The notes under the pieces are model-generated. The model was not told the origin of the DNA. It saw only the letters and a list, made by a program, of their open reading frames with translations, and searched no databases. 32,000 nt of DNA. Source: an uncultured bacterium. GTDB taxonomy: Bacteria; Patescibacteriota; Gracilibacteria; UBA1369; PNNO01. Within the stretch, counting starts at the first letter, position 1; every line of letters starts with the position of its first letter. The position numbers and the translations under genes are program-made. Shown here one piece after another: positions 6,328 through 6,376 of this stretch. Location of the stretch: positions 1,320,001 through 1,352,000 of the forward strand of contig OY969931.1 of assembly GCA_963704705.1 (NCBI GenBank), given 5' to 3'.

Positions 6328-6376
6328 CTTACCGAGTAAGGGGGTCTTGCCGAGTAAGGCCCCTTTGCCGAGTAAC
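6328..6376. repeat. 3 direct copies (18-bp period) of a 13-nt palindrome YTTRC-N3-GYAAG
   Basis: cttaccgagtaag-ggggt-cttgccgagtaag-gcccc-tttgccgagtaac, in the divergent efp / sigma-factor intergenic region. Confidence 0.85.

Follow-up and report, generated by a model that had tools for sequence, protein, structure and literature searches.

The short palindromic arrays found between divergent promoters in this bacterium are best explained as lineage-specific REP-like repeats tied to RAYT genes in a family of Peribacteria (CPR). They would be mobile elements whose units are swapped by a putative RAYT activity, a reading given a probability of about 0.72. The host genome is closed, 1.37 Mb in length and 35.5% G+C, and the stretch of 32,000 nucleotides analysed (the window) contains three arrays of the same class. 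All members of the family share a general build, in which a 13-bp palindrome with 5-bp arms is followed by a G- or C-rich linker of 5-6 nt, and successive units are arranged head to tail with a period of 18 or 19 bp.

Positions refer to the window unless genome coordinates are specified, and arrays are listed without strand. Array 1 (6328-6376) is composed of three units, CTTAC.cga.GTAAG, CTTGC.cga.GTAAG and TTTGC.cga.GTAAC, which start at 6328, 6346 and 6364 and are separated by two mutually complementary linkers, ggggt and gcccc. Array 2 (15775-15805) has two identical CTTAC.cga.GTAAG units starting at 15775 and 15793, with gtggt as the linker. Array 3 (20752-20800) consists of three units with TTGC...GCAA arms, starting at 20752, 20770 and 20788, and their loops read ttg, cag and tta. 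In each case the unit is a 13-bp 5-3-5 palindrome, and re-reading of the DNA reproduced the sequences, coordinates and exact 18-bp period given in a first-pass annotation. For the YTTRCNNNGYAAG pattern the window has 12 strand-matches, compared to an expectation of 0.73, and none of 100 shuffles reached 12. The three arrays with their 18-bp period are far beyond chance. A search of the window for known RNA families and tRNAs found none, and there was no Rfam match.

The arrays belong to a family that is dispersed throughout the genome. Perfect 5-3-5 palindromes show a spacing peak at 18 bp over the whole genome, with 27 pairs compared to 1-4 in three Markov simulations, and a second peak at 36 bp (21 versus 1-6 in the same simulations). 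The genome-wide search for further copies that the first-pass annotation had proposed was run, and such copies exist: approximately 30 arrays with an 18- or 19-bp period were recovered, comprising about 100 units and at least four arm classes. Arrays were sorted by the analyst into four classes based on arms, centre and period. Class A has the units ATCAC/ATTAC.cga.GTGAT/GTAAT with a period of 18 (genome 85934, 14 units; genome 1276567, 9 units), and class B has xTTAC.tta/taa.GTAAx units with a 6-nt G- or C-rich linker and a period of 19, occurring at several sites in the window. Class C (CAGAC.cag.GTCTG, period 18) is encountered at genome positions 35543, 563828 and 1126853. Class D, to which arrays 1-3 are assigned, combines CTTAC.cga.GTAAG with YTTGC.nnn.GCAAR units at a period of 18 and occupies seven loci. 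The C-G closing pair, the 3-nt centre and the spacing are common to all classes. Many arrays are plain direct tandems (for example those at genome 85934 and 1276567 and at window position 27403), and one mixed array at genome 652682 consists of two class B units followed by CTTGC.taa.GCAAG.

Small genes of the Y1_Tnp type are embedded among these repeats. Four such genes (R1 to R4) score above the Pfam cut-off in the genome, and three of the palindrome classes each lie beside a different one of them. R1 is flanked by the ATCAC/ATTAC units of class A, including the 14-unit array, R2 by the TTAC.tta.GTA units of class B, and R3 by the CAGAC units of class C; R4 is flanked by a different, long GC-rich hairpin. 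R2 (27528-27950, + strand) encodes a Y1_Tnp protein of 140 amino acids, for which two further lineages have syntenic orthologues of 83-84% identity, and its sole sequence match in the PDB is 4ER8, TnpA-REP. Upstream of R2 is a 19-bp array of TTAC.tta.GTA units with 3.6 identical copies (27403-27471), and downstream is a class B pair, GTTAC.taa.GTAAC and CTTAC.taa.GTAAC (27973-28004). Beside R2 orthologues the class B arrays keep their place and type but differ in copy number by whole units (2 versus 4). Both syntenic relatives carry two copies of the upstream array where 3.6 perfect copies are found here, which points to a recent expansion. Further class B pairs are located at 8989-9020 (GTTAC.tta.GTAAC and CTTAC.taa.GTAAC), directly 5′ of a TTGACA-16-TATAAT promoter, and at 29485-29516, between a PGM gene and a 539-aa ORF, the latter pair being near-identical in contigs L192 and L194. 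Overall, 8 of the 17 class B and class D loci lie inside the 32-kb window around R2.

Class D units (CTTAC.cga.GTAAG or TTGC...GCAA) were not found beside any of the four RAYT genes of this complete genome. They do have a RAYT association in two congeners (G003 and G004), where YTTAC.cga/tcg.GTAAR units spaced 18 bp apart lie on both sides of a RAYT gene; the exact 13-mer found in arrays 1 and 2 is among them. These two RAYTs share 81% identity with each other, and their identity to any RAYT of this genome does not exceed 51%. Their flanks map to genome 1275264-1277689, a region that here contains no RAYT and only the 9-unit array, so that the gene seems to have been lost from this genome with an expanded array left behind. 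That array (genome 1276567-1276723) is built of ATCAC.tcg.GTAAT units at the site where the G003/G004 RAYT has CTTAC.tcg.GTAAA flanks. Class D has the TTAC/GTAA arms of the R2 repeats and the cga centre of the R1 repeats. R2 and R1 are both candidate enzymes for class D, as is a recently lost RAYT that congeners have kept. The link drawn earlier between the arrays and the TTAC-TTA-GTAA repeats around the RAYT is thus borne out by mixed arrays of both unit types, by common arms and by the identical units that flank a RAYT in two congeners. The earlier suggestion of a diverged subfamily of the REP type is supported as well.

The palindrome repertoires are genome-specific. The core TTRCCGAGTAA is present in 4-17 copies (4 in G004) in eight searched genomes of the same taxonomic family, with 0-1 for controls, and is at background level elsewhere in the order. 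GTAGCCNGGCTAC is limited to G002, and ATGACCGAGTCAT to G003 and G004. The GTAG-tagged class of G002 (GTAGCCNGGCTAC) occupies at least four loci, among them the efp-sigma and pheS sites. Despite having its own array class, G002 (99% complete, 100 contigs) yielded no hit for a Y1_Tnp gene. Genome G007 has 14 copies of the core and one RAYT only, with a different centre.

Three loci were compared among four congeners, eight further genomes of the family, and contigs retrieved with homologues of the sigma factor, PheS and R2. At these loci the same sites hold different palindromes in different relatives. The efp-sigma site, which carries three units of the CTTAC.cga.GTAAG type in this genome, has three class-B-like units in L174 (sigma factor 91% identical), class-B-like units in G001, three to four GTAGC.cag.GCTAC units in G002, four AGTAC.cgg.GTACC units in L179 and another palindrome in G004/L175. 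There is no array at this site in L180, G005, G007 and G009-G012. In a separate case (G008, contig L007), the efp-sigma spacer has an insertion of about 270 bp with a tRNA-like 3′ part, consisting of a T-arm-like stretch (GGTTCAATTCC) and a CCA end. The pheS site shows six different states among relatives. Arrays of the TTGC...GCAA type are found in this genome, in L192 (nearly the same array) and in L181 (a related array); L183 and L194 have class B, G002 the GTAGC type, G004 three ATGAC.cga.GTCAT units, G001 one CTTAC.cga.GTAAG unit and G003/L187 a TTTCT/AGAAA type, and L191 and G007 have none. GC-rich hairpin repeats of a different type are found at L194:2700-2830 (also in L183-L186), between the pheS start codon and the promoter, that is in the leader. 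The site of array 2 has two GAGTAC.cga.GTACTC units in G001 and no array in G007.

The most detailed case is the efp-sigma spacer in comparison with its closest relative, L174, where the flanks are 89% identical and the 55 array columns 45% identical, and where all three centres and both linkers of array 1 have changed in parallel. Array 1 was exchanged as a block, since point mutation cannot produce this combination of conserved flanks and divergent array. The units are degenerate and class-B-like in L174 and G001 and near-perfect in this genome, so the class D array is probably the newer occupant. The same observation weakens a view of class D as a decaying orphan relic and suggests recent activity. 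Array content that differs completely at one site between close relatives with conserved promoters also argues against the notion that the arrays are iterated sites for a regulator. An exact scan of metagenomes with the conserved sigma-promoter 17-mer returned chance matches only, none of them with the neighbouring conserved motifs.

The promoters around the arrays are older than the arrays. As initially described, all three arrays lie between divergently transcribed genes and abut -35-like hexamers. The gene pairs are efp (-) and an ECF sigma gene (+), a secreted-protein gene (-) and a GC-rich secreted-protein gene (+), and pheS (-) and a small zinc-ribbon ORF (+). The efp promoter (TTGCTT, 17 nt, TATATT; 6285-6313, - strand) is conserved across the genus with or without an array. 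On the other side, the TTTTTGTAATG motif and the TTGACA-17-TATAAA promoter of the ECF sigma gene (6381-6466, + strand) are kept in all family-level relatives, including those that are arrayless. In G005, G007, G009-G012 and L180 the efp promoter, the TTTTTGTAATG motif and the sigma promoter are all present with no array between them. The TTTTTGTAATG motif itself (6381-6392), about 45 nt upstream of the sigma TTGACA box, is conserved in every family-level relative. It could mark the -35 region of an additional ECF-type promoter, perhaps one under self-regulation. At the second locus, a promoter-like TTGCAA-16-TATTAT (15809-15836, + strand) begins 3 nt downstream of array 2, and its TTGCAA box is also found in the arrayless G007. 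The leftward promoter-like element (TTGACT-16-GACAAT, 15731-15758, - strand) belongs to the secreted-protein gene at 15145-15702, and both G002 and G007 retain the surrounding block of about 40 nt. The two -35 boxes of this locus are 8 nt apart in G007, with nothing between them, and array 2 occupies that gap here. Arrayless relatives retain the flanking promoters, so the promoters are the older component and the arrays were put between them.

The pheS locus is a partial exception. The promoter-like TTGCCA-17-TAAATT of pheS (20735-20763, - strand) has its -35 box inside the first unit of array 3. In relatives both -35 boxes of this locus read TTGCAA, and here the outer units TTTGC.ttg.GCAAG and CTTGC.tta.GCAAG are found at those positions; these units still supply TTGCCA and TTGCTT at the correct spacing for both divergent promoters. 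Only here might a -35 box have been reshaped by an array. Elsewhere, the proposal that arrays create promoters is not supported, as the efp, sigma, lipoprotein-side and rightward promoters are kept in arrayless relatives. The description of the neighbouring DNA as GC-rich foreign cassettes does not hold either, as the downstream genes or leaders are conserved in relatives. A promoter consensus scan was not enriched relative to shuffles (46 versus 40), and the promoter calls consequently rest on conservation in relatives.

Over the whole genome, 24 arrays are intergenic and 6 lie within called ORFs, 5 of these being in frame inside genes. Twelve of the intergenic arrays are between divergent genes, 10 between co-directional genes and 2 between convergent genes. 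The divergent share (12/24 versus 30.5% of intergenic bases, p = 0.036) is a modest excess from a count that includes the three arrays that prompted the analysis. In several cases a good -35 box follows 2-5 nt downstream of the array, and one array lies between a terminator and the next promoter, a placement that fits survival in untranscribed spacer. The five in-frame arrays all have a period of 18 bp rather than 19 bp, in line with a need to preserve the reading frame. Two of the in-frame arrays are class D and fall in loops of an EPSP-synthase-like and an aspartate-oxidase-like protein; the same codons of these two genes carry arrays with other arms in G001 and G002 and no array in G003, G004 and G007. 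The array in the nadB-like gene looks like an 18-bp duplication seeded on native DLL codons.

The covariation of the arms noted previously was confirmed by a statistical test. In 53 distinct units the stems are 84% Watson-Crick paired, compared to a mean of 60% and a maximum of 68% in 2000 column shuffles. Double compensatory changes are seen at pair 3 (T-A, C-G, G-C) and pair 4 (A-T, G-C) with few G.T intermediates, and the closing C-G pair is almost invariant. The 3-nt centre, which had been regarded as free, takes only a few forms (cga/tcg, tta/taa, cag/ctg, ccg/cgg, ttg). The proposed separate mini-hairpins with 5-bp stems are not favoured, as single-strand folding prefers one long hairpin over the whole array; z-scores for the arrays folded as ssDNA are moderate (-1.6 to -3.5), and the long hairpin of array 1 has -9.3 kcal/mol on the + strand versus -7.3 kcal/mol on the other strand. 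Across the 30 arrays, strand-specific differences in folding energy are small and inconsistent, and no strand or replichore bias of the cga/tcg centres was seen relative to the GC-skew replichores. In the cga orientation there are 3 independent G.T wobbles versus 0 A.C, too few events to show single-strand selection. The covariation shows only that palindromy is kept, a pattern that could arise from folding of a single strand, from recognition by a protein dimer or from templated repair.

In the proposed mechanism, the units would serve as recognition hairpins of small RAYT enzymes (TnpA-REP-like HUH/Y1). By cutting single strands within or next to the linkers and transferring them, these enzymes would add, remove or swap whole 18/19-bp units, and existing arrays might act as landing pads that attract further insertion. 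Inserts would then survive in the untranscribed spacer between back-to-back promoters and in tolerant protein loops, with sites persisting and their contents being replaced by the palindrome class that is active in the lineage. Several observations count against this mechanism: none of the RAYTs of this genome lies beside class D units, the 5′ tag of classical REPs is missing, strand and replichore bias were not seen, G002 combines its own array class with no detected Y1_Tnp gene, and G007 has one RAYT, with a different centre, for its 14 core copies. A more far-reaching version is possible, if rather unlikely, wherein long-lived landing pads in promoter spacers and protein loops are repeatedly overwritten by the class of the active RAYT, and the negative supercoiling of divergent promoters may expose the hairpins and make the arrays supercoiling sinks. 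If true, this would amount to REP dynamics, and possibly promoter insulation, of which no description was found, with the smallest REP units known, in the CPR.

Several other explanations deserve consideration. The arrays could be selected structural elements. Supercoiling would be buffered, or the two promoters insulated, by an extruded cruciform or by a nucleoid or topoisomerase protein bound to the array, such that the geometry is kept and the sequence is free. The same sites hold unrelated arm classes with the 5-3-5+5 geometry in many lineages, and this re-use could reflect a selected function; the modest divergent excess (p = 0.036) and the ability of each array to fold as one long hairpin point the same way, and E. 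coli BIMEs are known to bind gyrase and IHF. However, family-level relatives and the congeners L180 and L191 keep the same promoters without an array, arrays also occur in protein loops and after genes, and the hairpin z-scores are only moderate, which leaves a structural role improbable. It is also improbable that the arrays are a minisatellite independent of RAYTs, in which slippage or template switching expands hairpin-prone 18-bp units while palindromy and arm changes are by-products of intrastrand templated repair. Head-to-tail arrays and whole-unit copy changes would be expected from such a process, the seeding of the nadB-like array on DLL codons resembles it, and G002 has arrays with no RAYT detected. 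Against this stand the identical 13-mers at dispersed loci, the clustering of each class beside a particular RAYT and the genome-specific repertoires, and a switch of the whole array from one class to another between close relatives is beyond slippage.

Readings that attribute regulation to the units fit the comparative data poorly. A dimeric transcription factor could co-regulate efp, the ECF sigma gene, pheST and their divergent partners through operators, as at three divergent promoter regions 13-bp palindromes overlap -35 boxes or immediately precede them, and several other arrays abut a -35 box. This is nonetheless very improbable: the content of the site differs even in the closest relative, where the promoters are conserved, many relatives have no array, the same units are found in coding loops and beside RAYT genes, and the 18-bp period is out of phase with the DNA helix. 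Transcribed RNA hairpins that function as stabilisers, attenuators or terminators might be considered, given that the imperfections on the + strand of array 1 are G.T only and that one unit scores as terminator-like. Both flanking genes have their conserved -35 boxes downstream of the array, which hence lies in untranscribed spacer, the orientation of the arrays relative to genes is inconsistent and Rfam has no match, so that an RNA function is extremely unlikely.

The preferred reading, that of REP-like repeats tied to RAYTs, places the arrays beside several known systems. In the E. coli REPtron (TnpA-REP, 4ER8, with REP/BIME elements; PMC3333891, PMC3479197), as here, small HUH/Y1 genes are found amid their own palindromes, which are dispersed extragenically, have a C-T step at the foot of each unit and vary between strains in locus copy number and linkers. 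For BIME-2 this variation in copy number and linkers has been documented, together with strand exchange by TnpA-REP in vitro (PMC3333891). In classical REPs a conserved tetranucleotide, GTAG or CGTC, marks the foot of the palindrome on its 5′ side (PMC3733652, PMC3333891), and TnpA-REP requires GTAG. The units of this genome have no 5′ GTAG or CGTC tag, their starts being CTTAC, TTTGC, ATCAC and CAGAC; only the G002 class reads GTAGC. They also differ from the E. coli system in being 13 bp with 5-bp arms rather than about 35 bp, in forming direct head-to-tail arrays with a fixed 18/19-bp period rather than REP/iREP pairs, and in numbering tens rather than hundreds per genome, with several RAYT paralogues in 1.37 Mb. 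Classical REPs are mostly located in 3′ untranslated regions, whereas the arrays described here are mostly in untranscribed promoter spacers. As in REP systems generally, the palindromes are short and mainly extragenic (24/30 arrays), at a copy number far below that of enterobacteria. In this genome, classes A, B and C are dispersed palindromes that also flank a RAYT of their own, and for class D such a RAYT is found only in G003 and G004.

The REPIN-RAYT systems of Pseudomonas and Neisseria (PMC3116915; bioRxiv 10.1101/2021.07.10.451892) offer a second comparison, with a RAYT that has its own adjacent repeat class, vertical inheritance, tandem REP arrays, repeats that insert into repeats, and repeats able to outlive their RAYT. 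Tandem REP arrays and the insertion of REPINs into existing REPINs have been reported (PMC3116915), as has the persistence of repeats after RAYT loss (bioRxiv 10.1101/2021.07.10.451892). A REPIN consists of two inverted REPs that form one long hairpin. Arrays 1 and 3 have complementary linkers and each folds into a single long hairpin, but their centres all point the same way, and many other arrays are plain direct tandems. In contrast to the inverted REP doublet of REPINs, what replicates here looks like either a direct tandem unit or a symmetric three-unit block. No description was found of the class-for-class replacement at one site that is seen here in close relatives. In Rickettsia, another organism with a small genome, palindromic elements (RPEs) likewise enter protein-coding genes in frame, as single elements of 100-150 bp, and they have no known cognate transposase. 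The coding inserts described here differ in being 18-bp-period arrays of units that also flank RAYT genes.

REP and RAYT elements have been studied almost only in Proteobacteria, and a literature search for RAYT/REPIN systems in CPR/Patescibacteria found no paper. The present lineage has a stripped-down version, with 13-bp units, an 18/19-bp period and several RAYT paralogues with distinct cognate arms. New features added by class D are the lack of a resident cognate RAYT, the location in promoter spacers and the replacement of classes at fixed sites. The apparent loss of a RAYT at a syntenic site and the replacement of a class at the same nucleotide position between close relatives constitute natural experiments, making this a convenient system for the study of hairpin reading by RAYTs, competition among repeat classes and effects on neighbouring promoters. 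For annotation, such arrays are not to be read as operators, terminators or signs of foreign DNA.

The surroundings of array 3 provide additional observations. The cumulative GC skew has its minimum at approximately genome position 1,341,000 (window position ~21,000), within the interval 20700-22400, where gene orientation switches from pheST and the upstream genes (-) to topA and the downstream genes (+), and this interval is a candidate replication origin. The dnaA gene is at 941 kb, away from the skew minimum, and DnaA boxes near the minimum show neither a cluster nor an excess (10 versus 7.6 expected); on these two grounds the array near the minimum was rejected as an origin-related repeat. 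Between the HU gene and topA there is a non-coding stretch (22073-22374) with long blocks that are strongly conserved in two other lineages, L192 and L194. It contains repeated TTATA(C)AAGCCAA-like motifs and could represent an origin region or an unannotated RNA.
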